From the sequence record DRR378314_1650: DNA of 33,482 nucleotides; one strand, 5' to 3'. Numbering within the stretch: position 1 is the stretch's first letter; every line of letters starts with the position of its first letter. A program made the translations under genes and the position numbers. Shown here in pieces: positions 1,748 to 30,056 of the stretch. Under the pieces are notes generated by a model. That model was given only the letters and a program-made list of their open reading frames with translations, made no database searches and was not told the origin of the DNA.

Positions 1748-1751
1748 CTCC

Positions 1752-2885: not shown

Positions 2886-3893
2886 ATGCAGGACTTCATT
2901 GCCTGGGTCAGCGCCCACATAGCACCCTGGTTCGGCTGGATGCAAATTGTACTTATTCTTGGCTTGCCCGCGTTTCTGCTCAGCTTTGGGTTCGAATGGG
3001 CCGGGGTGCGCTATCGTAGCGGCTCATGGCAGGCGTCTTCGCCAGGGCAGCGGTTTTACTGGAAGGAAGTGCTGGCAAATCTAACCCTTGGCCAAGGCTA
3101 TTACGTGTTTGAATTTCTGATGCACCTTGCGTTTCTGGGTGCGGGCATGGCCCTGGTTTGGCAACACCGGTTGTTCACCGTGGACATCAATGCCTGGACT
3201 TTGCCTTTGATCTTCCTCGTCGAGGAACTCTGTTACTACACCTATCACCGTAGTGCACATCGCGTACGCTGGTTCTGGGCGCAGCATGTATCCCACCACA
3301 CCGGTGAAGTCATGAACCTGACCACGGCAGGCCGACAAAGCATACTCAATGGCATTGTCGGGGTGTGGCTGTTTTTCATACCGCCGATACTGCTCGGCGT
3401 ACACCCTGCGGTTATCACCGCCATGCTCGGACTTAATCTCGCCTTCCAGTGGTTTGTGCATACCGAAACGGTACCGAGGCTGCACCCGGTGCTGGAATGG
3501 CTGTTCAATACACCGTCGAACCATCGCGTGCACCATGGCCGCAACCCGCAGTACATCGATAAGAACTACGGTGGTGTGCTGATGATCTACGATCATCTGT
3601 TTGGCACCTATGAGCCTGAGGTCGAGAAGGTGGAGTATGGCACCACCCGCCAAATCAAGAGCTACAACTGGTTTGTACTCAATCTGCATGAGTTCGTGGA
3701 TATGTGGCGTGACGCGCTGGCTCCCGGTTCATTGTGGCAAAGGCTGAAGCATTTCTGGATGCCGCCGGAGTGGGAGCGTCCCGGGCACACACCGATTCAT
3801 ACCTGGACGATAGAACGCAAGGGTGGCGCGCAAACAGAGCCACGCCAGCCCAAGCAGGGCAGCAGCTCAATAGAGATCAACGAGGCGGTGTAA
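2886..3893 (+). CDS. Sterol desaturase / fatty-acid hydroxylase family membrane di-iron enzyme (alkylglycerol monooxygenase-like)
   Basis: His boxes HRSAH, HVSHH, HTE, HRVHH; PSNHRVHHGRNPQYIDKNYGG...DHLFGT; several TM segments; divergent from AraC. Confidence 0.9.
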   Translation: MQDFIAWVSAHIAPWFGWMQIVLILGLPAFLLSFGFEWAGVRYRSGSWQASSPGQRFYWKEVLANLTLGQGYYVFEFLMHLAFLGAGMALVWQHRLFTVDINAWTLPLIFLVEELCYYTYHRSAHRVRWFWAQHVSHHTGEVMNLTTAGRQSILNGIVGVWLFFIPPILLGVHPAVITAMLGLNLAFQWFVHTETVPRLHPVLEWLFNTPSNHRVHHGRNPQYIDKNYGGVLMIYDHLFGTYEPEVEKVEYGTTRQIKSYNWFVLNLHEFVDMWRDALAPGSLWQRLKHFWMPPEWERPGHTPIHTWTIERKGGAQTEPRQPKQGSSSIEINEAV

Positions 3894-3922
3894 CGCACCG
3901 ACAGGGTCTCTGGTATCCCCCC

Positions 3923-3941
3923 GGGTGGCCTCATGCCACCC
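3923..3941. terminator. Hairpin between convergent genes
   Basis: GGGTGGC-CTCAT-GCCACCC, a perfect 7-bp stem. Confidence 0.45.
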
Positions 3942-3966
3942 TTACGCGACAAGGCGCGCTGAACCC

Positions 3967-4719
3967 TTATTCATCGCGCTTTAAGAAGCTGTCGATCATA
4001 TCCATGGGCAGTGGGAAGACCACCGTGGTGGTGCGGTCATTGGCCACCTCGGTGAGGGTCTGCAGATACCGCAGTTGCAGGGCCTGGGGCTGTGACGATA
4101 GGGTGCGGGCCGCGTCCAGCAGCACTTCGGAGGCCTCTTTCTCGCCGTTGGCGTGAATCACCTTGGCGCGCCGCACCCGCTCCGCTTCCGCCTGACGGGC
4201 GATCACCCGCACCATGTCTTCGTCCAGGTCCACGTGTTTGATTTCCACGTTGGTCACCTTGATGCCCCAGGGGTCGGTCTGCTCATCCAGGATTTCCTGA
4301 ATGTCCCGGTTCAGTTCGTCCCGGGAGGCCAGCATTTCGTCCAGCTCGTGCTTGCCCAGCACCGAACGCAGGGTGGTTTGCGAGAGCTGGCTGGTGGCGT
4401 CGTAGAAGTCCTCCACGTTGATCACCGCTCGTTCCGGATCGACCACCCGGAAGTAGAGCACCGCGTTGACCTTCACCGACACGTTGTCGCGGGAAATCAC
4501 GTCCTGGCTGGGCACATCCAGCACCCGCACCCGTAGGTCCACCTTGACCATCTGCTGAATCACCGGGATCACCAGAATCAGGCCCGGGCCCTTGACCTTG
4601 TGATAGCGCCCCAGCATGAAGATCACACCGCGCTCGTACTCGCGCAGAATACGGAACATGCTGACCACGAAGCCAACGACAAGAATCGCCAGCGCGATCC
4701 AGAAATATTGAAAGATCAT
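3967..4719 (-). CDS. Slipin / stomatin-like SPFH (band 7) membrane protein
   Basis: [59 protein letters not shown]; overlaps the nfeD stop (ATGA). Confidence 0.95.
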
Positions 4720-6155
4720 GATTTGTCTCCTTTGCGGGACACATGAAGAGTGAGGCCGTCGCGGCGGCGGATGGTTACCGTTTCGCCCTCAAAGACCGCC
4801 TCGTCGGTGGTGGCGCGCCACAGCTCACCGGCGGCGTGCACCTGGCCGGTACCGCCCGGCCCGAAATCCGTCGCCGCCACGGCGTCCTGTCCGATCAGCG
4901 TGTCGCCGCCGGTCACCACCGGGTGGCCGTGGGCCTTGAAGGCCAGCCGCACCGTCAGGCCGGTGAGCGCCAGGCTGCCCACGCCCACCGCCGCGATCAC
5001 CGGCACCGCGATCTGGAAGGCGGGCAGGTCCGTGTCCATCAGCATGATCGAGCCAATCACCAGGGCCACCGCGCCGCCCACGCCGAGGACGCCGAAGCTG
5101 GGCGATAGCCCCTCCGCCACCATCAAGCCGATGCCGAGCAGGATCAATCCCAGGCCCACATAGCTCACCGGCAGCATCTGCAGCGCGTACAGCGCCAGCA
5201 GCAGGCAGATGGCGCCGAGCACGCCGGGGATGCCGAAACCCGGGTTGGAGAATTCCAGAATCAGCCCGTAGATGCCCACCAGCATCAGAATGTAGGCGAT
5301 GCTGGGGTCGGTGATCACCGCCAAAAAGTGTGTGCGCCAGTCGCGCTCCAATTCCACCAGCCGGTAATCCTTGAGCGCCAGGGCGCGCTCGGCGTCGCCA
5401 TCGCGTACGGTAAAGCCGTCCAGCCGGGTAAGCAGGGTGTCCAAATCCGGCGCCACCAGGTCGATCACCTGCTGGGCCTCGGCCTCGGTGGCGGTCAGGC
5501 TGACGGCCTCGCGCACCGCGCGCTCGGCCCAGTCCGCGTTGCGCCCGCGCAACTCCGCCAGGCCGCGAATATAGGCCACGGCGTCGTTGACCTGCTTGCG
5601 GCGCAGCGCGGAGGCATTGTCCTCAATATTGTCATCGGCCTGGGGCTTGGCGTCGTCGCCGGCCGGGGAGGGCGCGCCACCACCGCCCAGCTGCACCGGT
5701 GTGGCAGCGCCCAGGTTGGTGGCCGGAGCCATCGCGGCCACGTGGGAGGCGTAGAGCAGATAGGTCCCGGCGCTGGCCGCGCGGCTGCCGGAGGGTGACA
5801 CATAGGTGGCCACCGGGACCCGGGAATCGAGAATCGCCTGGATCATGGTGCGCATGGATTTATCCAGACCGCCCGGTGTGTCCAGGCGCAGCACGAACAG
5901 CGCCGCGCCATCTCGGTTGGCGTCCTCCAGGGCACGCACGAAACCGTCGCTGACCGCGGGGCCGATGGCGCCTCGGAGATCCATGACCCGCACTTCCGGC
6001 CCCTCGGCGGCGGACGGCTGGGACGCGGTTTGCGCCCGGGCGGTGGCGGCGAGCAGCAGCAGGGCGGCGAGGGCGATAAGGTATCCGCCCAGGCCGCGCC
6101 CAAAGGGCCGCTTCCCGGGTGAAGAGTGTCGATCGCTGCCGGCTACAAGGATCAT
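4716..6155 (-). CDS. nfeD: NfeD long form (ClpP-class membrane serine protease + TM + OB fold)
   Basis: [15 protein letters not shown] (catalytic Ser), [13 protein letters not shown] (Lys), C-terminal GELWRA OB domain; operon with slipin. Confidence 0.92.
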
Positions 6156-6319
6156 GCGCGCCTCTTAGCTGCTTGGCTGCTTGGCTGCTGCTTCCATGAA
6201 AACGCAGTTCAACGGTCCCGGCAATGGAAACCGGCGGCGCCCCCTTTTCGCCATCCGCAGCATGCTGCATAGTACGGCCAGTGTGCCGCACCGCCATTCA
6301 CCCGCCCATAAAGCCCGCG

Positions 6320-7231
6320 ATGACCACTTCCAACGCCGTGAAATGCCTGATTGCCACCTTGTTGCTGGTCGTGCTGGTCCAGCCGGCCGCGGCCGCGGGC
6401 CTGTTCCAGGGGCTCACCAGCGTCGATGCCGGTCCCAGACTGGACGACGATGGCGTGATCCGGCAGCAGGTGGAGCAGGACGAGATGTTTCTGGAGGCCG
6501 GCTCCGGCGCACGCATCCAGCTGCCCACCCAATGTGTGTCTTCAGCGCTGGTGGCGCGCAGCCACAGCCGTTTCAGCGCCCTGTTCCCGGAAACCGAGGG
6601 CATGGTCGGCAGCGGTACCGTGACCAACGAAGCCGGCCTCACCGTGGAGCGCCTGTTCGGCGCGGCGGCCAGCCCGTACCGGCTGGAGACCGCGTTCAAG
6701 GCACACCGCATCGACCTCTACAGCTACGAACTCAGCCATCAGCAGACGTTCGGTTCCGCCTTCGACAGCCCGGTCACGGTGAGCGAGCAGCAGGGCTTTA
6801 ATGTGGATACCCGGCTGAGCCGCTCCTTCGGTGAGCTGGATCTGGCCCTGCGGGTGGAAAAACTGTTCCCGGACCGGGGGCCGGGCAGGGTGGCCAGCCC
6901 CTACACCCTGAAAGCCCACGCCGAGCTGACTACCGGCTTTCAATACGCGGGCCTGCCCACCCGGCTGAACCTCAACCTGGACCGATTCCAGGCCCTGGAG
7001 CGCGAACTGGACGCCCGCTACGCCGGCGCCCGCCTGCAGTGGGGCGCCGCCGACCGCACCCGGCTACGCCTGGGTTATCGCCACGACCTGGTCGCCAATC
7101 TTGATTCGGTGGCCACCCTGGGCCTGGTGTTCCCGCTGTTCCATGTGTTCGATCTGGATATCTCCGGCACCAAGAACCCCGGCGACGCCTACGGCGTGCT
7201 GGCGCGGCTGGCCGCGCCGTTCTCGTTCTAG
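6320..7231 (+). CDS. Secreted/outer-membrane beta-barrel protein with TraF_2-like C-terminus
   Basis: Signal peptide MTTSNAVKCLIATLLLVVLVQPAAA; C-terminal LRLGYRHDL...VATLGL..FHVFDLDISG resembles the TraF_2 family; terminal Phe. The start at 6320 is inferred. Confidence 0.55.
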   Translation: MTTSNAVKCLIATLLLVVLVQPAAAAGLFQGLTSVDAGPRLDDDGVIRQQVEQDEMFLEAGSGARIQLPTQCVSSALVARSHSRFSALFPETEGMVGSGTVTNEAGLTVERLFGAAASPYRLETAFKAHRIDLYSYELSHQQTFGSAFDSPVTVSEQQGFNVDTRLSRSFGELDLALRVEKLFPDRGPGRVASPYTLKAHAELTTGFQYAGLPTRLNLNLDRFQALERELDARYAGARLQWGAADRTRLRLGYRHDLVANLDSVATLGLVFPLFHVFDLDISGTKNPGDAYGVLARLAAPFSF

Positions 7232-7244
7232 GGCCTGTTCACTA

Positions 7245-8798
7245 CTACTCGGGAATGCGGAATGAGGTCACCAGCGACTTCAGATGGCTGGCCTGATCTT
7301 CCAGCGAGCCGGCCGCGCTGCTGGATTGCTGCACCAGCGCCGCGTTCTGCTGGGTGACCGCGTCCATCTGCGTCACCGCGGTGCTGATCTGCTGAATGCC
7401 GCCGATCTGCTCGGTGGTGGCGGAGGCCACATCCCGCATCAGCTCCGCCAGCTTTTTAATCGATTCGACGGTGCCGTTGAGCGTTTCACCACTGCGCTGG
7501 GTCTGGTCCGCGCAGGTGGCGATCTGCGCGCCGGTGCTTTCCAGCAGGGCACGGATCTCGCCGGCGGAATCGCCAGCGCGGCTTGCCAGCAGCCGCACTT
7601 CACTGGCCACCACCGCGAAGCCACGGCCTTTTTCCCCGGCCCGGGCCGCTTCCACGGAGGCGTTCAGGGCGAGAATATTGGTCTGGAACGCAATATCGTC
7701 GATGGTGGCGATGATGCCGTTCATCTTCTTTGAGCTGGCCACCACCTGCTCCATCAGGTTGATGTTGGCGCGCATCTCCTCACCGCCGTGCTGGGCGCTG
7801 CGCGAGGCGGCGTCCGCGAGCCGGTCGGCCTCGCGGGTGTTTTTCTCATTGTGCTCCGAGGTGGCGCTGATCTCTTCCATACTGGCGGCGGTCTCTTGCA
7901 GAGCGGCGGCCTGCTCCTCGGTACGGGAGGAGAGGTCCTGGGCGCCCAGAGCGATCTCATTGGCACCGATATACACGGTCTCGCTGGCGCCACGTAACGC
8001 GGACACCAGCTTGACCAGGGAATCGCTCATTTCCGCCATGGCGGCCAGCAATTGCGCCGGCTCATCGCGCCCGCTGGCGACGATGCGCTCGCGCAGATCC
8101 CCCTGGGCGATGCGGCGGGCCACGCCCAGGGCATCGGCGAGGGGGAGGGTGATGCTACGGGTGATCACCACCGCCAGAACCACCGATACCAGCAGCGCCA
8201 CGGCGGCGAACACCACCAGGCCGAGCAACGCCTGGGTGACCTGCGCCTGCAGCGTCGCGCCCAGACCACCGAGATTCTCCATGGCGATGTCATGAATACT
8301 CTGGGCCGCTTCCTCAAGCTGGTAGATGCCTTGCTTGTTCTCCGAAAAGGCCGCGTTGGCGGCGGCCGTATCCTGGTAGTCGCCGTTCATGATCGCGCCG
8401 TAGATGCGGGTGAAATCCGCCTCGTAGGCGCTCAGACCCTCCCGGGCGTCCCGGTAGCGCTGCTGTAGCGCCGGCGCCACCGCCAGTGCCTCGCCTTCAT
8501 CGAGCACGCTTTTCAGCTGCGTGACGGTGTCGCTCCATTGGCTGAAATAGCCGTTCAAGGCGCTGAAATCCGCCATGTTGATAAAGACATCTTTCTCGTA
8601 TCGACGCAGTTCCAGCGCCAGGCGGCGCACCACGCCCGCGTTCGACGCCACGGCGCCGTCGGTCTGCAACGCCTCGCGGGTGGTGTCCGCGATCCGCGTT
8701 ACCGAAAACAGGCCGGTGCCCGAGGCGGCCAGCAGAAGAAGCAAAATAACAGCGAAGGCGCCGCCGAGACGGGCGCCGATCTTGAATTGACTAAGCAT
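7245..8798 (-). CDS. Methyl-accepting chemotaxis protein (2 TM, four-helix sensor, HAMP, signalling domain)
   Basis: [34 protein letters not shown] hairpin tip; HAMP IAQGDL..RDE. Confidence 0.96.
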
Positions 8799-8949
8799 GA
8801 GGGGATACCAGGAATGACAGTGACAAGGTTGGGGGAGTTGTCGGCGTGTGCGGCAAAATCTTTAGCCTTAAAATGCCGATCTGGCCCGACACTTGAGAAC
8901 CTGCCCGGGAATTGGCATGGTTCGCCCACCTAACTGGCCCGAGCGCGCT

Positions 8950-10221
8950 ATGCCCATTGATCTCGATTTCGACCGTGACCACCTCTGGCACCCCTATACC
9001 TCCACCTCCAAGCCGCTGCCCACATACCCGGTGGCGCGCGCCGACGGGGTACGCCTGGAGCTGGAAGACGGCCGCACGCTGATCGACGGCATGTCGTCCT
9101 GGTGGGCGGCGATCCACGGCTATAACCACCCGCGCCTCAACCAGGCCGCCAAGGATCAGATCGACAAGATGGCCCACGTGATGTTCGGCGGCATCACCCA
9201 CGAGCCCGCGGTGGAGCTGGGCAAACGGCTGGTGCGGATGACGCCGGAACCGCTGAACAAGGTGTTCCTGGCCGACAGCGGCTCGGTGTCCGTGGAGGTG
9301 GCGATCAAGATGGCGCTGCAATACTGGCTCAGCCAGGGGCAGTCCGAGAAACACCGGCTGATCGCGCTGCGCAACGGCTACCACGGTGATACTTTCGGCG
9401 CGATGGCCACCTGCGACCCGGTCAACGGCATGCACCATCTGTTCAGCAAGGTGCTGCCCAAGCACCTGTTCGCGGACGCGCCGGCGGTGGGTTACCACGA
9501 CGACTGGGACGAGCGGGACCTGGATTCCCTGCGCGGCCTGCTGGAACAGCACGGCCACGAAGTGGCGGCGGTGATTCTGGAGCCGATCGTGCAGGGCGCC
9601 GGCGGCATGCGCTTCTACCACCCGGAATACCTCCGCGGCGCCCGCCGTCTGTGCGACGAGCACGGCGTACTGCTGATTTTCGATGAAATCGCCACCGGTT
9701 TCGGCCGTTCCGGCGAACTGTTCGCCATGGACCACGCCGGTGTGTGCCCGGACATTCTCTGCCTGGGCAAGGCGCTCACCGGCGGCTACATGACCCTGGC
9801 GGCGACCCTGTGCAACGACCGCGTGGCCGCCGGCATCTGCGACGGCGAGGCCGGCGTGCTGATGCACGGGCCCACCTTCATGGGCAATCCGCTGGCCTGC
9901 GCGGTGGCCAACGCCAGCATCGATGAGCTGCTGGAGAACGACTGGCGCGGGCGCGTGGCGGGGATCCAATCCCAGCTGCGCCGGGAACTGGAACCGCTGC
10001 GCGGCGCCCCCGGTGTCGCCGACGTGCGTGCCCTGGGCGCCATCGGCGTGCTGGAACTGGAAAAACCCTGCGACGTGGCCGCCACCCAGAAGCTATTGGT
10101 GGAGCAGGGTGTGTGGATCCGGCCGTTCGGCAAGCTGGTCTACATCATGCCGCCTTACGGCATTGAGCCGGAGCAACTGAGCCAGCTCACCGGGGCCATG
10201 GCCGCCATATCGGAGTCCTGA
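8950..10221 (+). CDS. bioA: Adenosylmethionine-8-amino-7-oxononanoate aminotransferase
   Basis: [47 protein letters not shown] (PLP Lys), [16 protein letters not shown] 8950 preferred over the ORF-track start. Confidence 0.97.
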
Positions 10222-10353
10222 GCGTAGCTATCCCGGTACCTTGTAGAACGAGTAAGCCGGGGCATGAGCAACGGTTTAGGACTTGGCCAGCCTCGGCAGC
10301 CCTTTAACAATTGGGTTCAACCATCGTGATTTCAGCAGAAATCGTGATTTTTG

Positions 10354-11076
10354 CTAGTCAGCCGCACGGGTAAAAGTGATCCTGCCTGCGGTATTGCCAG
10401 CTCTGCGCCAATTCCGTTTGGTCCAATAGTATCCCTCTAGAACCAAATTATTAGCATCACCAGTTAGATCAATCCAGGCCGCACCATAGTGCTCACTGTC
10501 GTCATCTGAAGGTGTGTCTCTACGCTTCGACATATACACGTACGTCAATTGATGCTGAGTGGTGCCATTTACTTTCTTTATTGGAGAAGCGACTAAAGTA
10601 ATTGATTCAGACGACGGATTTACCCCGTCATCGAAGCTCGTCTTGACAGACACATCAAGGAAAGTAACTTTTATTTTAGCCGTTCCGCTCATCTTTTTCC
10701 GTTCAATCTTATCAACATCGATAGGCGAAAAGACGTCAAAGCTTGTATCCTTATCTGTTGCGGCTTCAGCCATCGCGAGATAGACAGGATAGTTTGACTG
10801 CAACTCAACCTTCCAATTCCCACTGATGTCTGGATAGGCTTCTTTATCGATCTTCATATACAGACCCCAGACCACCCTAAAAAAGCAAACATTATTGGCA
10901 AAAAAAATCAGCGCCGTTACGGATAACGTCGTAGACAGTCCCAATACCCTCAACCAAATTTCCGATATCGGCGCTCCAGTAACAAAGAAATAGGCTGCCC
11001 CTACTATCGCGACAAAAACAAAGTAAACCGCAATAACTAGCCTGATCAATAACTTAGCATCGAATATTCGGTACAT
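10354..11076 (-). CDS. cap15: CBASS effector, Cap15 family (2TM + beta-barrel, S-2TM-beta)
   Basis: Two N-terminal TM helices, then YPDISGNWKVELQS, LTYVY, HYGAAWIDL, LEGYYWTKR, TAGRITFTR strands typical of Cap15; adjacent to the CD-NTase; AGGTGG RBS. Confidence 0.85.
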   Translation of the reverse strand: MYRIFDAKLLIRLVIAVYFVFVAIVGAAYFFVTGAPISEIWLRVLGLSTTLSVTALIFFANNVCFFRVVWGLYMKIDKEAYPDISGNWKVELQSNYPVYLAMAEAATDKDTSFDVFSPIDVDKIERKKMSGTAKIKVTFLDVSVKTSFDDGVNPSSESITLVASPIKKVNGTTQHQLTYVYMSKRRDTPSDDDSEHYGAAWIDLTGDANNLVLEGYYWTKRNWRRAGNTAGRITFTRAAD

Positions 11077-11169
11077 GCCGCCACCTAATACAATTTCTTG
11101 AAATTTGGCTATAAGCCCCCATGATATTACTCAGATAGCAGTATTGACCACAAAAAAGGGCTATTTGAG

Positions 11170-12399
11170 ATGCTAAAACTTAATTTACATGGCTTGCTGT
11201 ATTCCTCAAACGCACAAACCGATTGTTTCTTCAGCAATATTTCCCTTAGCAAATCGTGCAAGGAGGATTTGCTTGATGCGCGAAGAAGCATCCGTGAACA
11301 TTTAAAGAAGAATCTTGCCACCAAGCTGGCCGCAAAAGCGCCTGGCGCCACGGCCTCAGGTGTTAAAGGAGCTAGCCCGAGGTTTTTTACTCAAGGATCC
11401 TGGGCATACAAAACGATAAACTCACCATGTCAAACTCCGCCCCAACAGGCCGATTTGGATGACGGGACCTACCTTCCGTTTAGCTATATAGAGACAAAAC
11501 CTCCGCATGAGATGAGTGAGATTCTCTTTGCTAGTGTTGAAGAATTGCTGGAGGAAATTGCCGAGGAAAAGAAGTGGCAAGTCTGCAACAAGAATAATAA
11601 CTGTACAAGAGTCATAATTTCATATGACAAACATATTGACGTTCCAGTTTACAGCATCCCGGACGAAGATTTTGTTACCCTAACCGCCAGCCTCGAATTG
11701 GCAAAAAGTCACGTAATGGCGATTAATGAATCGCTGGAAAGTATTTTCGCGACAGATCGAGATCGCGCGTATGCAATTCTGGAGTCCCTTGACGAGCAAC
11801 AGTGGAACGATATGCCTGAAGGTGTACTGATGGCTACCAAGGACAAAGGCTGGGTAGAAAGTGATCCAAGGCCTATACGAGACTGGGTTACAGAGCAGGT
11901 TAAAACTAAGGGAGAGCAGCTACGTAGGGTTATGCGATATATGAAAGCTTGGCGTGACCATGAGACCTGGAAAATCGATGACCCAAAATCGATTCTTCTA
12001 ATGGTTGCGGTTGATCGCGCTTTCCAGGCAGCAAAGCCAGGCCGTGATGACTTAGCTCTTCTTGACGTCCTCCAGAAACTTCCCAGTATATTGCAAGGTC
12101 AGGTTCTCAATCCGGCGACCCTCGATAGACCACCGGAAGAGCAGGAAGACTTGGCACTTAGACTCGATAAGAAATGCATCCGCCAGGATGTTGTCCAACG
12201 ACTCGAGCGTTTTTATGCAGAATTGGAAGTGGCTGTAAATAATAGTCCTTCGCCCGAACATTCATGCGATATTCTAGTTAAGCATTTAGGCCAAAGAGTT
12301 CCTTATCAGCCTAGCCGCGTAGGTCAAGACACTGTTCGTAGCACCACTGTGGAGAAGACCAAGGCAGTGGCGCCTATCGGGCAGGTTCACTCGGCGTGA
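11170..12399 (+). CDS. cdnA: CBASS cGAS/DncV-like nucleotidyltransferase (clade A, CdnA-like; probable 3'3'-cGAMP synthase)
   Basis: PRFFTQGSWAYKTIN, QQADLDDGTYLP, HIDVPVYSIP, SDPRPI, GEQLRRVMRYMKAWRD match DncV and Pseudomonas CdnA motifs; flexible tail ending VHSA. Confidence 0.93.
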   Translation: MLKLNLHGLLYSSNAQTDCFFSNISLSKSCKEDLLDARRSIREHLKKNLATKLAAKAPGATASGVKGASPRFFTQGSWAYKTINSPCQTPPQQADLDDGTYLPFSYIETKPPHEMSEILFASVEELLEEIAEEKKWQVCNKNNNCTRVIISYDKHIDVPVYSIPDEDFVTLTASLELAKSHVMAINESLESIFATDRDRAYAILESLDEQQWNDMPEGVLMATKDKGWVESDPRPIRDWVTEQVKTKGEQLRRVMRYMKAWRDHETWKIDDPKSILLMVAVDRAFQAAKPGRDDLALLDVLQKLPSILQGQVLNPATLDRPPEEQEDLALRLDKKCIRQDVVQRLERFYAELEVAVNNSPSPEHSCDILVKHLGQRVPYQPSRVGQDTVRSTTVEKTKAVAPIGQVHSA

Positions 12400-14075
12400 A
12401 GGTCGATTTCAGCGAGGTTAATCGCGCGTTATTTGAACACGGCTTTACTAACCAGAGGAATAAAAAAGGTATTTCAGTATACTCAGGGTTTTTACACGTG
12501 GCATCGAAAGAGGAAAATGTTAAAGCCACTATAATATTTCTAGATAGAGACATGAAAAAGCCACCGTACATTAGGCTGGATTCAATGCCTGATTGGGTTC
12601 CCATAGTGTGCCCACATATTTCCCATGATGGGTTGCTCTGTTACTTAGATTCCCAAAGAGCCTATTTGCCTAGGTGGGAGTTTCCCGGTGCAGTGATTAG
12701 TTGCATTCATGCAGCTGAAGCAATGTTGGATAAAATCGCCAGAGGAGAGATCGAGAGGGATATCGAGGATGAGTTTCTTGCCTATTGGGCTGGAAAACCA
12801 CTGTTGATCGATTTGCCAGATTTTTCAAAACGCAGGAATTTTGATGACCTTGGTTTTTTTGATATTGAACTGGACGAGCAAAGGAGCATCCAGTTAATTG
12901 GGGTTAGTCCATCTTATTTGGCGTCGGCTTATGAAGACTTTGTAAAGCCCGACCGCATCCACAGCACACCGTTGCACTTTGTTGAGATTGATTCGCCTCT
13001 AGGAGCGTCGGGTGACAATTGGCCACCAAAGACGGTGTATGATCTCCTAGAGTGGTCAAAAAAAATATCACCTTCAATACAGGATTGCGTTAGAAATGCT
13101 CTCTGCGACATCAGCGATCCATCGAAACCTCAGAGTCTTGTTCTGATTAAAGGTACAAATAAATCTTGCGCTGTAGCAATAAAAGGGAATATTGATTTCT
13201 TCCTATATAAGAAGTATAGAAGCCCCGAACAATTCGCACAAAGAGTTACAAGATTTCAAAAGCTTCAAAAAAGATTTGAATTAATTCGATTTGAACCCAC
13301 CCCGACGGACCCAGAGTCTTGGCTCACACGAAACAACCAAGATAAACACTTGGGGCTTTCAGGAAAGAGGGTTATACTTTTGGGCTGTGGTTCCGTGGGC
13401 GGGTATTTAGCGGACATACTTGCGAAGATGGGTGCCGGCCAACTCGGCGGAGAACTTATTCTTTCAGATGACGATTCATTACAGCCTGGGAATCTCGGTC
13501 GTCACATTCTCGGTTTTGCTGATATAGGCGGGAAGAAGTCACTTGGCATGCGCAATAGACTTAGGTCGATGTATCCTCATATTGAAGTAAACGTTAGTAC
13601 TGACGCGGAAATTAAAGATCGGTCTACGCACCTTGTTATTGACGCGACAGGCAGCAAGGAAGTATCTCACTATATCAATGAACTTAAAGTTGAAGGCGAA
13701 ATTTCCGCTGACGTGATATTTACTTGGGTGGCCGGTGAGGGTATCGGTGCTCAAGCGATACTTGTTTCTGATCTAAATTACGCGTGCTTGACCTGCCTAG
13801 AAACAGACAGACCTGGCGGCATTCATTCGGTCCTGAAGAATGGTTACGAAACTGGATTCAAGGAAGGCTCCGGAGGTTGCGGCGACTTCTTAGTTCCATT
13901 CGATGTCACCGCCGCAATTCATGCTGCTTCCCTCGCTGGGAAGATGGTTCTTGATTGGTCTAGAAATCGTCCCCACCCAACGCTGAGGACCATTTTGCTC
14001 GACAGGAAAAACGGTGCAGCCGTCACGGACGCATCTCCAAAGCCCAATAGGCAATGCCCTATATGTGCGAATTGA
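12396..14075 (+). CDS. cap2: CBASS Cap2, E2-E1 (ThiF) fusion ubiquitin-transferase-like enzyme
   Basis: N-terminal E2 with PHISHDGLLCY; E1 with VILLGCGSVGG, DDDSLQPGNLGRH, VIDATG, CLTC, GGCG and C-terminal CPIC; GTGA overlap with the cdnA stop. Confidence 0.93.
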   Translation: MKVDFSEVNRALFEHGFTNQRNKKGISVYSGFLHVASKEENVKATIIFLDRDMKKPPYIRLDSMPDWVPIVCPHISHDGLLCYLDSQRAYLPRWEFPGAVISCIHAAEAMLDKIARGEIERDIEDEFLAYWAGKPLLIDLPDFSKRRNFDDLGFFDIELDEQRSIQLIGVSPSYLASAYEDFVKPDRIHSTPLHFVEIDSPLGASGDNWPPKTVYDLLEWSKKISPSIQDCVRNALCDISDPSKPQSLVLIKGTNKSCAVAIKGNIDFFLYKKYRSPEQFAQRVTRFQKLQKRFELIRFEPTPTDPESWLTRNNQDKHLGLSGKRVILLGCGSVGGYLADILAKMGAGQLGGELILSDDDSLQPGNLGRHILGFADIGGKKSLGMRNRLRSMYPHIEVNVSTDAEIKDRSTHLVIDATGSKEVSHYINELKVEGEISADVIFTWVAGEGIGAQAILVSDLNYACLTCLETDRPGGIHSVLKNGYETGFKEGSGGCGDFLVPFDVTAAIHAASLAGKMVLDWSRNRPHPTLRTILLDRKNGAAVTDASPKPNRQCPICAN

Positions 14076-14545
14076 TTTTTTTCTCCTCAGAGCACGGATC
14101 CATAGTTCTAATATTGGCAGAGGTCCTTACGGAAATCGGCTCTTATATCCAAACGGATCAGTCCTTTGAGGAAGCGGGCGGGTTATTGATCGGCGAGAGG
14201 AGAGGCGGGCACTTCATTGTTAACGGCATCAGCTCACCACAACCAACAGACGTCAGGAGAAGGTCATCATTTGTTAGGAATGTACCGGGACATTATCGGA
14301 TAGTACAGTCGGCATTTAGAATGTCAGGGGGAACGTCAAACTATCTGGGCGAATGGCATACTCATCCAGAGGATATCCCTAGGCCTTCTTCTGTAGATAA
14401 AGAGAGCTGGGTCAAAAACTCACTAGAACTGAAAAAGCATACTTTGGCGTTAATTCAAGGGCGGAAAGGAATATATTTCTCGCTGATCCTTGCTGACGGG
14501 CGAGTTCTTGAGCTAAAGCAAGTCACGGATAGGCATCCAAAATAG
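14054..14545 (+). CDS. cap3: CBASS Cap3 JAB/MPN metallopeptidase
   Basis: EAGGLLIG and YLGEWHTHP...PSSVD JAMM motif; overlaps the cap2 end; start may be ATG 14063. Confidence 0.93.
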   Translation: MPYMCELIFFSSEHGSIVLILAEVLTEIGSYIQTDQSFEEAGGLLIGERRGGHFIVNGISSPQPTDVRRRSSFVRNVPGHYRIVQSAFRMSGGTSNYLGEWHTHPEDIPRPSSVDKESWVKNSLELKKHTLALIQGRKGIYFSLILADGRVLELKQVTDRHPK

Positions 14546-14813
14546 TTTATCCCTTATACGCCTAAACGGTGCCTGATGCGGGGTTTTCAGGATCGCGCGC
14601 TAGTTGCTCAACCACCCACAGATTTCATAGCTTGGCCGGCGGGGTACTCGAAGCCAGCGGGATCGATCAAGTAGCTGTCGAGGGCTCACCATAAGGCTTA
14701 GATGCCGTGATTTCGGCGGGAGTGGGAAAGCCGTAACGCCAGGATTTCGAAGTCCGTAATCAATCTCCATGTGGGAGACAAGATATCGGTATACCTGTCT
14801 GAGCAAACAATCT

Positions 14814-14841
14814 ATTTAACATAATATATATTACACGTAGT
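14814..14841 (-). other. dif: dif site (XerC/XerD chromosome-dimer resolution site)
   Basis: Minus strand reads ACTACGTGTAA-TATATA-TTATGTTAAAT. The XerD arm is identical to E. coli dif, the spacer is 6 bp and the XerC arm is a variant. It is intergenic, and KOPS converge on it. Confidence 0.88.
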
Positions 14842-15174
14842 TATGGATTTGGGCCGGTGGGACGAAGCGCTCTCAGAATCCTCGTCCTTTCGGCGGTTCC
14901 GGCTTGTCCCCGGGACCGCCCCCAGGCCGGTGCCGGGTCTGCACTGCGAGCGTTCCGCTCGACAGGTTCCGGACTTCATATGACGAAACTTAAGGTCGCA
15001 CCATTAGGCGGCGATTCCATATAAATCATTGGCTTGGAAGGTATACCTGAGGTCGTTTCTATTTTATTGGCGGGTGACATTCGCCGGCCTTCGCGGGTCT
15101 TTCATGGCAAACCATTAGGCTTGGGCTGTCCGCTTGACCTGTTTCCGGCGGGCTGCGTTAATCCGGCCGCCGCC

Positions 15175-15193
15175 GATAAAGGGAATCATTGTC
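15175..15193 (+). promoter_or_regulatory. Fur-box-like operator upstream of the RND efflux operon
   Basis: GATAAAGGGAATCATTGTC matches 15/19 of GATAATGATAATCATTATC; followed by a -10-like TATGAT at 15197-15202. Confidence 0.65.
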
Positions 15194-15258
15194 GTTTATG
15201 ATGGTCCACTCCCTGGGCGAGAGTAACCACACCGAAATCATTGGGGGTAACGGTACGG

Positions 15259-16356
15259 ATGCGCGATTGCGATACTGCAGGGCTGGCCGGCGTTCTGGAC
15301 GCCCGGCGTCTATTTTTCGGGCTGGCCGGGTTGCTGGCGCTGTTCGCATTCGAACCGGCGGCCGCCCGGGAGCCGGTCTCCCTGGTGACGGTGGAATCCC
15401 GCCAGCTTGAAGAGCGCCTGCCGCTCACCGGCACCCTGACGGCCAAGCGCGCCGCCCTGCTTTCCACCTCGGTGTCCGGCCTGGTGACCGCCCTTAATGT
15501 GGACCTGGGCGACCGCATGGAACAGGGCGACGTGCTGCTGGAGCTGGATTCGGAACTGAACCGCCTGGCCCTGGAAGGCGCCCGCGCCGCCGCCGCCGAG
15601 GCGGAAGCCACCCTGGCGGACGCCCGCCGGCGCCTGGAGGAAGCCAGCACCCTGGCGGCCCGCCAGAGCATTGCCGCCACCCAGGTGCGCGGCCTGGAAT
15701 CCGAGGTGGAGGTGGCCCGCTCCTCCCTGGCCGGTGCCCGCGCCGAGGCGCGCCGGCAAAGCGCCCTGCTCGCCCGCCATTCCTTGAAAGCCCCGTTCGA
15801 CGGCGTGATCAGCCAGAAGCAGACCGAAGTCGGCGAGTGGGTGACGCCGGGCACCTCGGTGCTGGAGCTGGTCAGCCTGGAGGATCTGCGCGCCGATCTG
15901 TCGGTGCCGCAGGAGTATTTCCCACGGGTGTCCAAGGACGACCGGTTGGAAGTCCGGCTGGGCGGCGACAGCGGCCCGGCCTACCCGGCCACCATTTCCG
16001 CCATCGTGCCGGTGAACGATCCCAGCGCCCGGACCTTCCTGGTGCGCGCGCAGTTGGAGTCGCCGCCGGCGATGACGCCGGGCATGTCGGTGCGCGCCAC
16101 TCTCTTCCTGCAGGGCGATGAGGCCAGCCTGGCGGTGCCCCGGGACGCTCTGGTGCGCTACCCGGACGGCCGGGTGTCGGTGTGGCTGGCGGAGGAAGGC
16201 GACGACGGCCTGGTGGCGCGCGAGCAGCGCATCCGCATTGGCGACGGGCTGGCCGACCTGGTCACCGTGAAGGAAGGGTTGTCCGCCGGCGACCGGGTGG
16301 TGGTGCGCGGCAACGAAAGCCTGACCGACGGCCGCGCGCTGCGGGTGTCCGAATGA
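15259..16356 (+). CDS. RND efflux periplasmic adaptor (membrane fusion protein)
   Basis: Lipoyl half-motifs VSGLVTALNVDLGDRMEQGDVLLELD and LKAPFDGVI; RTFLVRA, PGMSV, GLSAGDRVVVRG; start inferred. Confidence 0.93.
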   Translation: MRDCDTAGLAGVLDARRLFFGLAGLLALFAFEPAAAREPVSLVTVESRQLEERLPLTGTLTAKRAALLSTSVSGLVTALNVDLGDRMEQGDVLLELDSELNRLALEGARAAAAEAEATLADARRRLEEASTLAARQSIAATQVRGLESEVEVARSSLAGARAEARRQSALLARHSLKAPFDGVISQKQTEVGEWVTPGTSVLELVSLEDLRADLSVPQEYFPRVSKDDRLEVRLGGDSGPAYPATISAIVPVNDPSARTFLVRAQLESPPAMTPGMSVRATLFLQGDEASLAVPRDALVRYPDGRVSVWLAEEGDDGLVAREQRIRIGDGLADLVTVKEGLSAGDRVVVRGNESLTDGRALRVSE

Positions 16357-16365
16357 GGTCTCGCC

Positions 16366-19300
16366 GTGTTTGAAAAGATTGTACGCAACGGCACCCTGAT
16401 GACCGTGGTGGTGCTGATCATCACCATTCTCGGCGTGCTCGCGGCGCTGCGCATTCCGGTGCAGATGATTCCCGATCTGGAAGTACGCACCATCACGGTC
16501 CAGACCAGCTGGCCCGGCGCCACGCCCCAGGACGTGGAAAAAGAGATTCTGATCGAGCAGGAAGAATACCTGCGCAATATTCCCAATCTGCGCCGTCTCA
16601 CCGCCACCGCGCGCAGCGGCGACGCGGAGATCGAGCTGGAATTTCCGTTCGGCGTGGACATCACCGAGACGCTGATCCGCGTTAATAACGCGCTCAGCCA
16701 GGTGCCCTCCTACCCGGATAACGTGGACCAGCCGCGCATTCTGTCCACCTCGTTCTCCGCCAACGCGTTCATGTACTACCGGGTCTCGCCCCAGGAGGGC
16801 AATCCCAAGGACCTGGACATGGACATGATGCGGGACTTCATCGACGACAACGTGCGCACCCGCATGGAGAGTGTCGACGGCGTCTCCCAGGTGGAGCTGC
16901 GCGGCGGTGCCGAGCGGCAGATCCGCGTGCTGCTGGACCCGCAAAAGCTGGCGGAGCGCGGCTTCACGGTGACGCAGGTGCGCGAGGCGCTGCTGAGCCG
17001 CAACCAGGATGTGTCCGGCGGTGAAGTGGACAGCGGCAAACGGCGCTATCTGCTGCGCACCGTGGGGCGTTTCGACCAGGTGCCGCAGTTGCTGGACCTG
17101 ATTCTGGAGCGCCGCGAGGACAGCGTCACCCGCCTGCGCGACGTGGCCACCGTGGAGCTGGACCATTTCCCGGTGCGCGCCGAGTCGTTCGTCAACGGCG
17201 AGCCGGTGATCAGCCTGGCGGTGCGCCGCGAGACCGGCTCCAACGTGATCGACATCAAGTACGCCATGTTCGATCAGGTGGACCTGATCAATAAGGAGGT
17301 GCTGGAACCCGCCGGCATGCGCATGTCGCTGATCTCCGACGACGTGCGCTATGTGGAAGCCTCGGTGGCCAATGTCTGGACCAACCTGGCGATCGGCGCG
17401 GCCTTCGCCACCCTGGTGATGTTCCTGTTCCTGCGTTCGGTGCGGGTCACCGCCGTGGGCGTGGTGGGCATTCCGATCTGTACCATCGCCGCCTTCCTGG
17501 GCCTGTTGCTGGCCGGGCGCACCATCAATGTGATCTCCCTGGCCGGGGTGGCGTTCGCCATCGGCATGACGCTGGATAATTCCATCGTTGTGCTGGAGAG
17601 CATCGAGATCGAGCGGCGCAAGGGGCTGGACCGGTTCCGCGCTTCGGTGGAGGGCATCCGCAAGGTGTGGCCGGCGGTGTTCGCCTCCACCATGACCACG
17701 GTGCTGGTGTTCCTGCCGGTGGTGTTCATCTCCCAGGAAGCCGGGCAGCTCTATTCCGACATCGCCATCGCCGTGTCCGCGTCGATCCTGATCTCCATGC
17801 TGGTGGCGATGACGGTGATTCCGACCCTGGCGGCGCGGCTCGATTTCGGCGCCGTGTTCGACCACGACGGCCAGGACAGCGGCTGGCTGCGGCGCGTGCA
17901 CGGCGTCTCCCACTGGCTCAGCGCCACCGCGCCCCGGCGCCTGGCCACCATCGCCGCCACGGTCACCGGCGGCGCCCTGGTGCTGGTGCTGCTCACCCCG
18001 CCGGCGGAGTACCTGCCCGAAGGCGAGGAAGCCAAAACCTTCGCCTCCATGAACGCGCCGCCGGGCTACAACCTGAACGCCATGGTGGAGATCGGCAAGG
18101 AGGTCCAGGCCCACTTCCTGCCGCTGGTGGACGCCGACCCGGCCGCCTGGGAGCGCGGCGAACTGCCGGCGCCGCCGATCCGCTACCTGAACCTGTCCAT
18201 CGAGGCCCAGAGCCTGCGCATCATCGCCGAGCCGGTGGATCCGGATCATATGGAAGCGCTGATGGACTCGCTCACCGAATACTACGAGCGCTACCCGGGC
18301 ATGCGCGCCTTCGCCGCGCGCGGCTCGATCATTTCCAGCAACGATGGCGGCACCCGCAGCGTCAATCTGGATATCTCCGGCAACGACCTGGCCACTCTTT
18401 ATGAGGTGGCGCAAACCGCCTACCGGCGCGCCGAAGAGGTGTTCGACAACCCGCGCATCCAGAGCCAGCCGGCCAGCCTGTCCCTGGCCCAGCCGCTGCT
18501 CGAGGTGCGCCCGGACTGGGAGAGAGCCGCCGAGCTGGGCATGGGCGCCGGCGACATCGGCTTCACCGTGGCGGCGCTCACCGACGGCGCCTTCATGGAC
18601 GAGTTCTTCCTCGGCGACGACAAGGTCGACATCTACGCCTACAGCAACGCCGGCGTGGATCCGGACCTGGCCGCCCTGCCCTCGCTGCCGGTGCACACGC
18701 CGCAGGGCGCCACCGTGCCGCTGTCGTCGGTGGCGCGGCTGGTGGAAACCGTGGACACCAGCAGCGTGCGCCGGGTCAACGGCCGCCGCACGGTGACCCT
18801 GAACATTATTCCGCCCCGCTCCGTGGCGCTGGAAACCGGCGTCGCCATGGTCCGCAACGACGTGATCGGCGCCCTGCGCGAGGCCGGCGAGATCCCGGCG
18901 GAGGTCAACGTGGATATCTCCGGCGCCAGCGACCAGCTGCAGGCCACCCAGGAGGCCCTGGGCGGCAACTATGTGGTGGCGGTGTTGCTGGTCTATTTGC
19001 TGCTGGTGGCGATCTTCACCCACTGGGGCTACCCGCTGCTGATCATGACCACCATTCCGGTGGGCATCGCCAGCGGCATCCTGGGTCTGGCGCTGTTGAA
19101 CGGACTGGGTGAACTGATGCCATTGCTGGGCCTGCCCGGCTTCAGCCAGCCGTTCGACATGATCTCCATGCTCGGCTTTTTGATTCTGATGGGCACGGTG
19201 GTCAACAACCCGATCCTGATCGTGCACGAGGCGCTCACCAACCGGCGCGGCGGCATGGCGGTGGCCGAGTCTGTCAGCGAGGCGGTGCGCTCGCGGCTGC

Positions 19301-19506
19301 GGCCGATCGCCATGACCACCATCACCACGGTGTGCGGGCTGGCGCCGCTTGTGCTGATCCCCGGCGAAGGCACCGAGCTGTACCGCGGCGTCGGCGCCAT
19401 CGTGCTGTTCGGCCTGCTGGGCACCGCCATCGTCACCGTCACCTTCCTGCCCGCGCTCACCGCCACGGTGTTGCGCCTCACCGAGCGCCGCGCCGCCTCA
19501 TCTTGA
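16366..19506 (+). CDS. RND efflux transporter permease (AcrB/AcrD/AcrF family)
   Basis: 1046 aa; WPGATPQDVE, AIGMTLDNSIVVLE, GTVVNNPILIV, SRLRPIAMTT motifs; GTG start with GAGG RBS. Confidence 0.95.
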   Translation: MFEKIVRNGTLMTVVVLIITILGVLAALRIPVQMIPDLEVRTITVQTSWPGATPQDVEKEILIEQEEYLRNIPNLRRLTATARSGDAEIELEFPFGVDITETLIRVNNALSQVPSYPDNVDQPRILSTSFSANAFMYYRVSPQEGNPKDLDMDMMRDFIDDNVRTRMESVDGVSQVELRGGAERQIRVLLDPQKLAERGFTVTQVREALLSRNQDVSGGEVDSGKRRYLLRTVGRFDQVPQLLDLILERREDSVTRLRDVATVELDHFPVRAESFVNGEPVISLAVRRETGSNVIDIKYAMFDQVDLINKEVLEPAGMRMSLISDDVRYVEASVANVWTNLAIGAAFATLVMFLFLRSVRVTAVGVVGIPICTIAAFLGLLLAGRTINVISLAGVAFAIGMTLDNSIVVLESIEIERRKGLDRFRASVEGIRKVWPAVFASTMTTVLVFLPVVFISQEAGQLYSDIAIAVSASILISMLVAMTVIPTLAARLDFGAVFDHDGQDSGWLRRVHGVSHWLSATAPRRLATIAATVTGGALVLVLLTPPAEYLPEGEEAKTFASMNAPPGYNLNAMVEIGKEVQAHFLPLVDADPAAWERGELPAPPIRYLNLSIEAQSLRIIAEPVDPDHMEALMDSLTEYYERYPGMRAFAARGSIISSNDGGTRSVNLDISGNDLATLYEVAQTAYRRAEEVFDNPRIQSQPASLSLAQPLLEVRPDWERAAELGMGAGDIGFTVAALTDGAFMDEFFLGDDKVDIYAYSNAGVDPDLAALPSLPVHTPQGATVPLSSVARLVETVDTSSVRRVNGRRTVTLNIIPPRSVALETGVAMVRNDVIGALREAGEIPAEVNVDISGASDQLQATQEALGGNYVVAVLLVYLLLVAIFTHWGYPLLIMTTIPVGIASGILGLALLNGLGELMPLLGLPGFSQPFDMISMLGFLILMGTVVNNPILIVHEALTNRRGGMAVAESVSEAVRSRLRPIAMTTITTVCGLAPLVLIPGEGTELYRGVGAIVLFGLLGTAIVTVTFLPALTATVLRLTERRAASS

Positions 19507-19575: not shown

Positions 19576-21006
19576 ATGCGAGATGGCAACGGCACGCCGT
19601 ACCACTACCGAGTGGTACGGCAATTCACGGTGGCCACCGTGGTCTGGGGAGTGGTGGGGATGCTGGTCGGCGTGTGGATCGCCGCGCAGCTTGCCTGGCC
19701 CGCCCTTAATTTCAATCTGCCCTGGTTGAGCTTCGGCCGCCTGCGGCCGCTACACACCAATGCGGTGATCTTCGCCTTCGGCGGCTGCGCGCTGATCGGC
19801 ACCTCGCTGTACGTGGTGCAGCGCACCTGTGAAACCCGGCTCGCCTTTCCCCGCCTGGCCACCTTTGTGTTCTGGGGCTACCAGGCGGTGATCGTGCTGG
19901 CGGCGATCACTTTGCCGCTGGGCTTCACCAGCACCAAGGAATACGCCGAGCTGGAATGGCCCATCGACATCCTCCTGGCGGTGGTGTGGGTGGCCTACGC
20001 GGTGGTGTTCTTCGCCACCATCGCCCGGCGGCGCACCAGCCATATTTACGTGGCCAACTGGTTCTACGGCGCCTTCATCATCACCATCGCGCTGCTGCAT
20101 ATCGTCAACAGCGCCGCCATCCCGGTGTCGCTGACCAAGTCCTATTCCGCCTACGGCGGCGCCATCGACGCCATGGTGCAGTGGTGGTACGGCCATAACG
20201 CGGTGGGCTTTTTCCTGACCGCCGGCTTCCTCGGCATGATGTACTACTACGTGCCGGTGCAGGCGCAGCGCCCGATCTACTCCTACCGGCTGTCGATCGT
20301 GCATTTCTGGGCGCTGATCGCCGTGTACATGTGGGCCGGCCCCCACCACCTGCACTACTCCAGCCTGCCCGACTGGGCGCAATCCGTGGGCATGGTGTTC
20401 TCCATCGTGCTGTTGGCGCCCAGCTGGGGCGGCATGATCAACGGTGTCATGACCCTCTCCGGCGCCTGGCACAAGCTGCGCACCGACCCGATCATCCGCT
20501 TCCTGATCGTCGCCCTGTCGTTCTACGGCATGAGCACCTTCGAAGGCCCGATGATGTCGATCAAGACCGTCAACGCGCTCAGCCACAACACCGACTGGAC
20601 CATCGGCCATGTGCACTCCGGCGCGCTCGGCTGGGTGGCGATGATCACCTTCGGCGCCGTCTATGTGATGACGCCGCGGCTGTTCGACCGCCGCCGGATG
20701 TTCTCGGTGGGCTGGATCAACGTGCACTTCTGGCTTTCCACCATCGGCACGGTGCTCTACATCGCCGCCATGTGGGTATCCGGGATCATGCAGGGCCTGA
20801 TGTGGCGGGCGGTCAACGACGACGGCACCCTCACCTACAACTTCATTCAGGAGCTCTCCGAACGCCAGCCGTTCTACATCGTGCGGTTGCTGGGCGGCGT
20901 CATCTTCCTCGCCGGCACCCTGCTGATGGCGGTGAACGTCTGGCGCACGGTGCGCGGCGACCGTGACGACAACGGCGACCTTAATGTGCTCCGGGAGGCG
21001 GCGTAA
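19576..21006 (+). CDS. ccoN: cbb3-type cytochrome c oxidase subunit I
   Basis: [48 protein letters not shown] heme/CuB ligands. Confidence 0.98.
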
Positions 21007-21008
21007 CC

Positions 21009-21644
21009 ATGGCCAATCACCATGCGGTTATTGAAAAGAACATCGGCCTGATGATCGTTCTGATCCTGGTGGCGGTGAGCTTCGGCGGCCTGGCGGAAAT
21101 CGTGCCGCTGTTCTGGCAGAAAGCCACCACCGAGCCGATCTCCACCCTGCGCCCCTACTCCGCCCTGGAGATGGCCGGCCGGGACGTCTACATCCGCGAA
21201 GGCTGCCACGTCTGCCATACGCAGATGGTACGGCCGCTGCGCGCGGAAACCGAACGCTTCGGCGATTACACCGTGGCCGGCGAGGATGTCTGGGAGCATC
21301 CGTTCCTGTGGGGCTCGAAACGCACCGGGCCGGACCTGGACCGGGTCGGCCTGCGGCCGATCACCGAACAGTGGCACCGCGAGCATCTGCGTGATCCGCG
21401 CGCGCTGGTGCCGGAATCCAACATGCCGGCTTACCCCTGGCTGCAGCACGCCACGGTGGACTGGTCGACCATGGCGCGCACGCTGACCGTGTTCCAGCGC
21501 CATTTCGGGGTGCCGTACAGCGACCAGGACATCGAAGAGCAGATGGCCAGGGTCAATGGCGAGTGGGCGGACGCCACCGAGGAAGACGCCCTGGTGGCCT
21601 ACCTGCTGTCCCTGGGCCAGGCCCGGCGGGAGCAGCGCCAATGA
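21009..21644 (+). CDS. ccoO: cbb3-type cytochrome c oxidase subunit II
   Basis: GRDVYIREGCHVCHTQMVRP, WGSKRTGPDL, SNMPAYPWL. Confidence 0.97.
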   Translation: MANHHAVIEKNIGLMIVLILVAVSFGGLAEIVPLFWQKATTEPISTLRPYSALEMAGRDVYIREGCHVCHTQMVRPLRAETERFGDYTVAGEDVWEHPFLWGSKRTGPDLDRVGLRPITEQWHREHLRDPRALVPESNMPAYPWLQHATVDWSTMARTLTVFQRHFGVPYSDQDIEEQMARVNGEWADATEEDALVAYLLSLGQARREQRQ

Positions 21645-21805
21645 ACTACCACGCCGTGATCACCGTGATCTTCTTTATCGCCTTTATCGCCCTGGTGGCC
21701 TGGGTGTACCGGCCCGGCCGCAAGCGCGACTACCAGAAACTGGGGGAGATTCCGCTGCGCACCGACAGCCACGGTCGCCGGAACCCGAAAGGAGACCGCC
21801 CATGA
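21641..21805 (+). CDS. ccoQ: cbb3-type oxidase small subunit (54 aa)
   Basis: MNYHAVITVIFFIAFIALVAWVYRPGRKRDYQKLGEIPL; single TM between ccoO and ccoP with ATGA overlaps at both ends. Confidence 0.9.
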   Translation: MNYHAVITVIFFIAFIALVAWVYRPGRKRDYQKLGEIPLRTDSHGRRNPKGDRP

Positions 21806-30054: not shown

Positions 30055-30056
30055 TC

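Follow-up and report, generated by a model that had tools for sequence, protein, structure and literature searches.

Small cargo beside a XerC/XerD site is familiar from the pdif modules of Acinetobacter, which lie between paired, inverted pdif sites. Integrative mobile elements exploiting Xer recombination (IMEX), among them CTXphi, TLCphi, VGJphi, the gonococcal genetic island (GGI), EludIMEX-1, Legionella LME-1 and PM2-like prophages, consist of foreign DNA that abuts an intact dif, has no recombinase of its own, is bounded by two dif-derived sites and integrates as a circle (PMC5357621, PMC9765430, PMC12715192, PMC10272882 and PMC11630473). Integrase-free hotspots of horizontal gene transfer hold variable cargo that is moved by double homologous recombination (Oliveira 2017, PMC5635113), and recombination in the flanks has been suggested for the core defence hotspots of P. 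aeruginosa (PMC10250203). The locus considered here lies in the window, the whole stretch of 33,482 nt from record DRR378314_1650, and all coordinates are positions in it. It consists of a four-gene cassette, predicted to encode a type II cyclic-oligonucleotide-based antiphage signalling system (CBASS), set between the host gene bioA and the chromosomal dif. On balance, and with modest confidence, we favour its arrival as a linear piece of a relative's chromosome, through a homologous crossover in bioA and a crossover at dif that was probably made by the host XerCD.

The host is likely an Alcanivorax-like marine gammaproteobacterium, judging from bioA. Its closest match in the genome collection (76%) belongs to an uncultured Alcanivorax sp. 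without a XerD arm within 10 kb, and the other matches are distant. The comparison set comprises 19 genomes of the genus, centred on the nearest one (G001), and 20 metagenome loci chosen by exact dif; genomes carry the prefix G and loci the prefix L, and most of the compared loci are metagenome contigs or draft genomes. On the left, G010 and L168 serve as the reference for lineage B, and L182, L174 and L175 as that for lineage A. The features that define the two junctions are the following.

4716–10154, no strand: left flank of lineage-B ancestry (nfeD, a hypothetical gene, MCP and the body of bioA), with 318/323 diagnostic sites as in G010/L168
8950–10221, plus strand: bioA, host biotin aminotransferase, which anchors the slot on the left (590 bits to NCBIfam TIGR00508; cut-off 405)
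10123–10154, plus strand: last strongly conserved block of bioA and putative left crossover zone (first 30 nt 93–100% identical in 19 loci, next 60 nt 68–80%)
10155–10221, plus strand: foreign bioA tail travelling with the cassette, in frame and with a normal stop (the body of the gene is 98% identical to G010, whereas none of 17 loci exceeds 80% in the tail)
14546–14810, no strand: non-coding end specific to the cassette, without homology to cassette-free relatives, whose identity begins at 14811
14814–14841, minus strand: chromosomal dif, 28 bp, with the XerD arm at 14814–14824, a 6-bp spacer at 14825–14830 and the XerC arm at 14831–14841
14842–19506, no strand: right flank of lineage-A ancestry (intergenic DNA and a resistance-nodulation-division (RND) efflux pair), with 166/173 diagnostic sites as in lineage A

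The site at 14814–14841 is the true chromosomal dif, because it is single-copy in 18 of the 19 genus genomes, its XerC arm is conserved in relatives (identical in 6 of those 18), and FtsK-orienting polar sequences (KOPS) point toward it from both sides. Over 32 regions their polarity flips at dif, with toward:away counts of 134:8 to its left and 117:4 to its right. The XerD arm of the site is the only perfect one in the whole window. The gene xerC is present in G001 and G010, and the dif pattern has no match in the viral contigs searched.

At the left junction the foreign DNA begins at about 10155, inside bioA, and covers its last 21 codons; an earlier note, made from the sequence without database searches, had started the island too late, at 10222. 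Contigs from two sequencing runs branch at 10123–10125. Up to 10154 the left flank is 99% identical to G010 versus 92% to lineage A, and only 4 of its diagnostic sites match L182/L174/L175. In the window, L168, L176 and L184 the bioA tail tracks the cargo and not the body of the gene: L168 carries the tail of G017, L176 that of G001 and L184 that of G010. This behaviour speaks for homologous crossovers within bioA and for a donor that is chromosomal and as yet unsampled. The 32-bp block at 10123–10154 was considered as a uniquely conserved stretch, an idea that was rejected, since two other 30-nt blocks of bioA match its conservation.

At the right junction, identity to cassette-free relatives begins 3 bp short of dif, giving a sharp edge at 14810/14811. 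The same note had described an AT-rich segment that ends at dif some 270 bp after cap3, with the XerD arm toward the island. The orientation and distance agree with our measurements (268 bp from the cap3 stop at 14545), and the edge is real by comparison with relatives, but base composition alone gives no sharp end: GC content is 45.7% in the cassette genes, 52.6% in 14546–14813, 56.9% in 14842–15240 and 67–68% in the core. The non-coding end has no plasmid match, and among phages it matches a single one, over the core of dif. Ancestry switches across the locus, from lineage B left of the cassette (318/323) to lineage A right of dif (166/173), where the flank is 98–99% identical to five of seven lineage-A loci versus 94% to lineage B. 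The first 8 bases past the XerC arm (14842–14849) vary at 4 positions among five lineage-A flanks, and the next 32 are invariant.

The finest resolution of this junction comes from L170, which carries a second copy of the cassette. L170 and the window agree throughout the 4,936 bases compared up to the end of the site (4,908 bp left of dif plus the 28-bp site, 0 differences), after which there are 12 differences in 282 bp, from the first base past the XerC arm. Over those 282 bases L170 is identical to the cassette-free L174; the two are set apart by a single spacer base and by the sequence that begins 4 bases left of dif. The spacer base, 14829, is a variant that goes with the cassette: of the 20 metagenome loci only L170 shares it with the window, and it is found in 1 of 18 genus genomes. 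Because the variant spacer is kept in L170 while its right flank is that of L174, one crossover would be confined to ~12 bp, namely the last spacer base and the XerC arm, if the cassette-free parent had the common spacer. XerC acts in the end of dif that covers this interval, and 12 bp is too short for RecA, which needs a minimum of about 23–27 bp.

The arrangement recurs in the sequencing runs. The cassette is present in 17 of them at no less than half of its words. Two of the four runs compared (X3 and X9) combine the bioA type of the window with the right flank of L170, and one contig of run X1 spans 10125–14859, crossing dif with 4 letters other than those of the window, the number expected for the L170 flank; bases directly right of dif are known in these runs as counts, not base by base. 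A second mosaic is found in G008, whose left flank is of lineage A (252/258) and whose right flank resembles L179 (241/272), the flanks diverging 1 nt left and 0–4 nt right of dif. Across 39 loci there are 19 left-flank types and 20 right-flank types, which reassort. Flank-sharing pairs among them, which are non-independent and include some prophage insertions, lose identity 1–3 nt left (9 pairs) or 0–7 nt right (20 pairs) of dif. The earlier suggestion of a swap by recombination between flanks is supported.

bioA adjoins dif in 13 of 18 genus genomes and 16 of 20 metagenome loci. The slot between them measures 0.08–6.3 kb and holds about nine cargo types across these 29 related loci. It may be empty, or contain a hydrolase, a metallophosphoesterase, dehydrogenases, a two-component pair or unknown genes; genes in these slots were called with our own script, which may miss short ones, and one representative per cluster was scanned. 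Defence genes were recognised in 2/29 slots, corresponding to two of the nine or so cargo types, that of L170 (the same CBASS) and that of L176. The other 27 slots have no recognised defence gene. The interval is therefore a variable slot into which a defence cassette comes now and then, and it is not mainly the defence hotspot that the earlier note had proposed. The variability itself is confirmed, and the slot of L176 provides a second, unrelated defence cassette. The comparison of occupied and empty relatives that the note had called for places the right junction at dif and finds the cargo variable.

The cassette of L176 (L176:6074–11274) consists of a WYL regulator, a 254-aa unknown gene and a 6A-MBL anti-phage pair (44–48% GC), and abuts the XerD arm; the 6A-MBL label derives from NCBIfam models, with the pair over their cut-offs. 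It replaced 95 bp, from the end of a resident hydrolase to 1 nt before dif. That hydrolase seems frameshifted in this contig.

How the CBASS cassette compares with the described systems can be stated in some detail. Like an IMEX, it adjoins an intact dif without a recombinase: no integrase or transposase family was found among the 28 open reading frames (ORFs) scanned in the window, shadow ORFs being outside the scan, and there is no tRNA in the window, as had been noted before. However, it has one site and not two, its other end lies in bioA, and the insertion is not clean, since the bioA tail and the host spacer were replaced and not simply added to. A profile scan of both strands found no second dif-like site in or near the cassette, the best score in 9500–14800 being 8.8, inside the range of shuffled sequence (2.6–14.2). 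As a positive control, the same scan recovers a second site at a distance of 11.5 kb in each of G002 (28.4) and G017 (13.4), and even the weaker of the two keeps a perfect 17-bp XerC arm plus spacer. Because true IMEX prophages at the same dif show a second site and the cassette does not, the cassette is not an IMEX, nor is it like a pdif module, for which paired inverted sites would be present in place of the single chromosomal dif; the suggestion of an IMEX- or pdif-like module therefore fails. With integrase-free hotspots it shares variable cargo at a fixed spot, the lack of a recombinase and a recombined core gene, bioA, on the left. The right anchor of those hotspots is a core gene, whereas here the switch occurs at a 28-bp site, with breakpoints within a few bases of it, and most occupants of a core defence hotspot are defence systems, in contrast to 2/29 here.

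The prophages used as controls are PM2-like and carry P2 capsid and GPA replication genes. They are integrated next to the XerC arm of dif in G002 (L140:8300–19900) and G017 (L148:50–11560). Others occur there in G035 (L161) and G048 (L164:4986–17882), with partial examples in L165 and L184, and none has an integrase match. The second sites of G002 and G017 combine a perfect XerC arm and spacer with a decayed XerD arm, and G048 has two near-full sites. These prophages match the dif-type prophages of PMC12715192 and extend dif-type double-jelly-roll prophages to this family.

Integrase-free defence hotspots moved through their flanks are described (PMC5635113, PMC10250203), and variable dif flanks are also known already. 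The word "dif" is absent from the main text of both of these papers and of the E. coli defence-island paper PMC10121019. No paper was found that joins CBASS to dif and XerCD or that describes one-ended replacement at dif, in a literature search with subscription papers and supplements outside its coverage; what is new here is the structure of the junctions.

The incoming piece starts at ~10155, takes in the cassette and stops just short of dif; there is one dif and no recombinase, and ancestry differs between the two sides. Under the mechanism that we favour, RecA would make the crossover on the left, at the last conserved block of bioA or ahead of it, and XerCD would make the right one at dif, a role suggested by the position of the breakpoint. 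Donor homology would therefore be needed on one side only, bioA and dif would stay functional, and no second site would be left behind.

The closest competitor is plain double homologous recombination, in which RecA makes both crossovers, in bioA on the left and on the right in the short identity of dif or in homeologous DNA beyond it, so that dif only looks like the breakpoint, being the one conserved stretch in a variable region. This process is established for integrase-free hotspots (PMC5635113) and suggested for defence hotspots (PMC10250203); it would be helped by a 32-bp block just right of dif that is invariant in five lineage-A flanks, and the first bases of the window past dif are like a lineage-B flank. 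However, if the variant spacer is retained, the identity left for a crossover before L170 parts from the window is only ~12 bp, and the cassette of L176 removed the entire host spacer as far as 1 nt short of dif, a position that an end falling at random would seldom reach. We regard it as unlikely, if by no means negligible. Less probable again is a stranded IMEX. In this case an element that brought its own XerD arm and spacer would have integrated at dif through XerCD, and a later deletion reaching into the end of the upstream gene would have removed its left hybrid site and its backbone and left the CBASS. IMEX prophages use the same dif within the genus (G002, G017), phage att sites made up of XerD arm and spacer only have been described (PMC12715192), such phages carry defence genes (PMC11630473), and the variant spacer is linked to the cassette; such an origin could also have occurred in the donor, compatible with later swapping. 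Yet no left site is seen at a score of 8.8, set against 28.4 and 13.4 for the prophage sites, the slot has no phage or plasmid gene, the prophages of the genus sit on the XerC side, and the search of viral contigs with this query gave no relative of the cyclase, while the bioA tail at the left junction points to chromosomal donor DNA.

The two remaining explanations have little to recommend them. Strains that share dif could have been misjoined in assembly, making the ancestry switches unreal, and it is true that most of the loci are metagenome contigs, that the window could itself derive from any of several runs, 10 entries among the matches, and that no single contig of the four runs compared spans the whole stretch. 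This is very improbable, given that the ~12 bases shared between the variant spacer base and the first flank difference are too short for a k-mer join, that the X1 contig crosses dif, that X3 and X9 agree, and that 17 runs contain half or more of the words of the cassette. Illegitimate capture, in which foreign DNA serves to mend breaks that Topo IV or stalled Xer complexes leave near dif, would suit the left junction of L176, where no homology is seen, and Topo IV does cut near dif (PMC10117906). Its cuts lie on the XerC side and >30 bp off, however, whereas the junctions here are 0–7 nt from the arms on both sides, and the bioA tail would be unexplained; we give this explanation hardly any weight.

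Several observations weigh against one-ended replacement by XerCD. The 28–31 bp of shared dif are near the minimum for RecA, so that RecA could use dif itself. dif is known to sit among variable genes (PMC9765430), and because selection preserves dif, an edge would naturally form there. In metagenome contigs or draft genomes, strains that share a 28-mer can be joined into chimeras. Of the first 11 bases of the window past dif, 10 are like the lineage-B flank of L168, more than in the lineage-A flanks, and the crossover in the window may therefore sit 8–11 bp beyond dif. Runs X1 and X7 have only lineage-A letters in the bioA beside the cassette, so the lineage-B tract could be a separate event ending in bioA. 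As to the donor, none of the 19 genus genomes has an NF041078 gene over the cut-off. Finally, the left junction of L176 has no donor homology, so that a first capture would need another step.

The cassette itself, by its gene content, is predicted to be a complete type II CBASS operon of ordinary kind, as defined in the preprint 10.1101/2022.03.31.486616. Four open genes (cap15, a DncV-like cyclase, cap2 and cap3) lie between bioA and the RND efflux pair, which starts at 15241, and are recognised by three libraries (Pfam, PADLOC and NCBIfam).

10323–10348, plus strand: terminator-like hairpin in the gap between bioA and cap15, an 11-pair stem followed by a T run; the count of such hairpins in the scan is not above shuffles
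10354–11076, minus strand: cap15-type effector with two transmembrane segments, divergent (Pfam PF18153, 35.3 bits, cut-off 31.2; PADLOC 2TM effector, E 9e-52)
11170–12399, plus strand: DncV-like CD-NTase, a CBASS cyclic GMP-AMP (cGAMP) synthase of 409 aa (NF041078, 322 bits, cut-off 150; PDB 4txy, E 3e-36)
12396–14075, plus strand: cap2, an E2-E1 fusion of 559 aa (Pfam Prok-E2_B and ThiF; PADLOC E1-E2, E 4e-117)
14054–14545, plus strand: cap3, a JAB isopeptidase (Pfam Prok-JAB; PADLOC JAB, E 6e-43; NF050170, 144 bits, under the cut-off of 200)

The nucleotidyltransferase motifs of the cyclase are intact, with GS and DxD conserved in the alignment, Cap2 and Cap3 stand beside it, and the effector scores over the Pfam cut-off for Cap15_CD_rec, with two hydrophobic stretches at its N-terminus; no solved relative of the effector was found by sequence. 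Compared with described type II CBASS with Cap15, all four genes are present, the effector is transcribed divergently, and no functional difference is seen. The cassette would be expected to act as other type II CBASS do: phage infection would trigger the cyclase, which Cap2 primes and Cap3 holds in check, and the resulting cyclic dinucleotide would switch on the membrane effector, so killing the cell.

The nearest named relatives of the cyclase are CBASS cGAMP synthases of Pseudomonas and Halopseudomonas (53–54%), and the three nearest cyclases (P0002–P0004) reach 62–78%. Relatives at 31–36% occur in 4/401 genomes of the order, none of them near dif: two are 0.35 and 1.2 Mb away in closed genomes, and two are on other contigs. 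With this query none was confirmed in viral contigs, and none above 60% was found in plasmids. No repeats mark the cassette junctions, and promoter and terminator scans gave results at chance level.

More tentatively, and without our going so far as to think it probable, dif may be a general one-ended gateway at which XerCD gives the second crossover for incoming chromosomal DNA, even between species. A fragment homologous on one side would then replace everything up to dif, and both flanks of dif would be freely reassorting slots. Defence cassettes, such as the CBASS here, the 6A-MBL pair of L176 and an Avs3 and restriction island in G109, would spread without a mobile element or an att scar. 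Many gene-transfer hotspots have no recombinase, and two RecA crossovers are the assumed mechanism; here one crossover would map to about a dozen bases in dif. Were XerCD responsible for it, replacing genes at the terminus would take half as much homology, thanks to a housekeeping enzyme. This would account for the strong variation of the dif flanks and provide a scarless route between species for defence systems.

The surroundings of dif were also searched more widely. At the family level, 83 candidate ORFs came from G048 and 11 family genomes, and 46 of them gave no convincing defence match. At the order level, 40 of the 81 genomes matching dif were picked for canonical spacers and distance from contig ends, giving 196 ORFs within 2.6 kb. 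A strong PADLOC match within that distance occurs in 3/40 genomes, two of the three beside an integrase, which is a raw count and not a measure of enrichment; a short, regulator-like Csa3 match was dropped. The island of G109 (L234:832–17806) is 17 kb long, with Avs3a, a HerA-domain protein, Mrr and type I restriction genes, and lies ~590 bp from the XerD arm. No integrase is present among its 9 ORFs scanned, and no second dif in 20 kb.

Several other elements adjoin dif in the genus. In G001 a Tn3-family mercury-resistance transposon with a tyrosine recombinase (L091:6307–18904) lies ~390 bp right of dif, where it replaces the RND pair; it has a weak dif-like res site at +1677. A 12-kb Rhs locus with low-GC orphan genes lies directly on the XerC side of dif in G010 (L146:7911–19564), L178 and L181, and its first bases are similar to the ends of the dif prophages. 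Near the XerC side of dif in G007 (L144:18689–19813), G003, G006, G012 and G017 there is a 374-aa HSDR_N-domain protein (50–55% GC), possibly a nuclease from its domain, without a PADLOC match.

Further features of the window lie away from the cassette. At 1715–3966 it has an AraC regulator and fatty-acid hydroxylase pair (56% GC) that is missing at this position from all related loci covering the place. The cluster of cbb3 oxidase, hemN and fnr at 19576–30977 is missing at that place in G008, G014, L168 and L179, and a larger part of the terminus is therefore patchy. The right end of the window (33329–33482) contains a 35-nt AT-rich inverted repeat.

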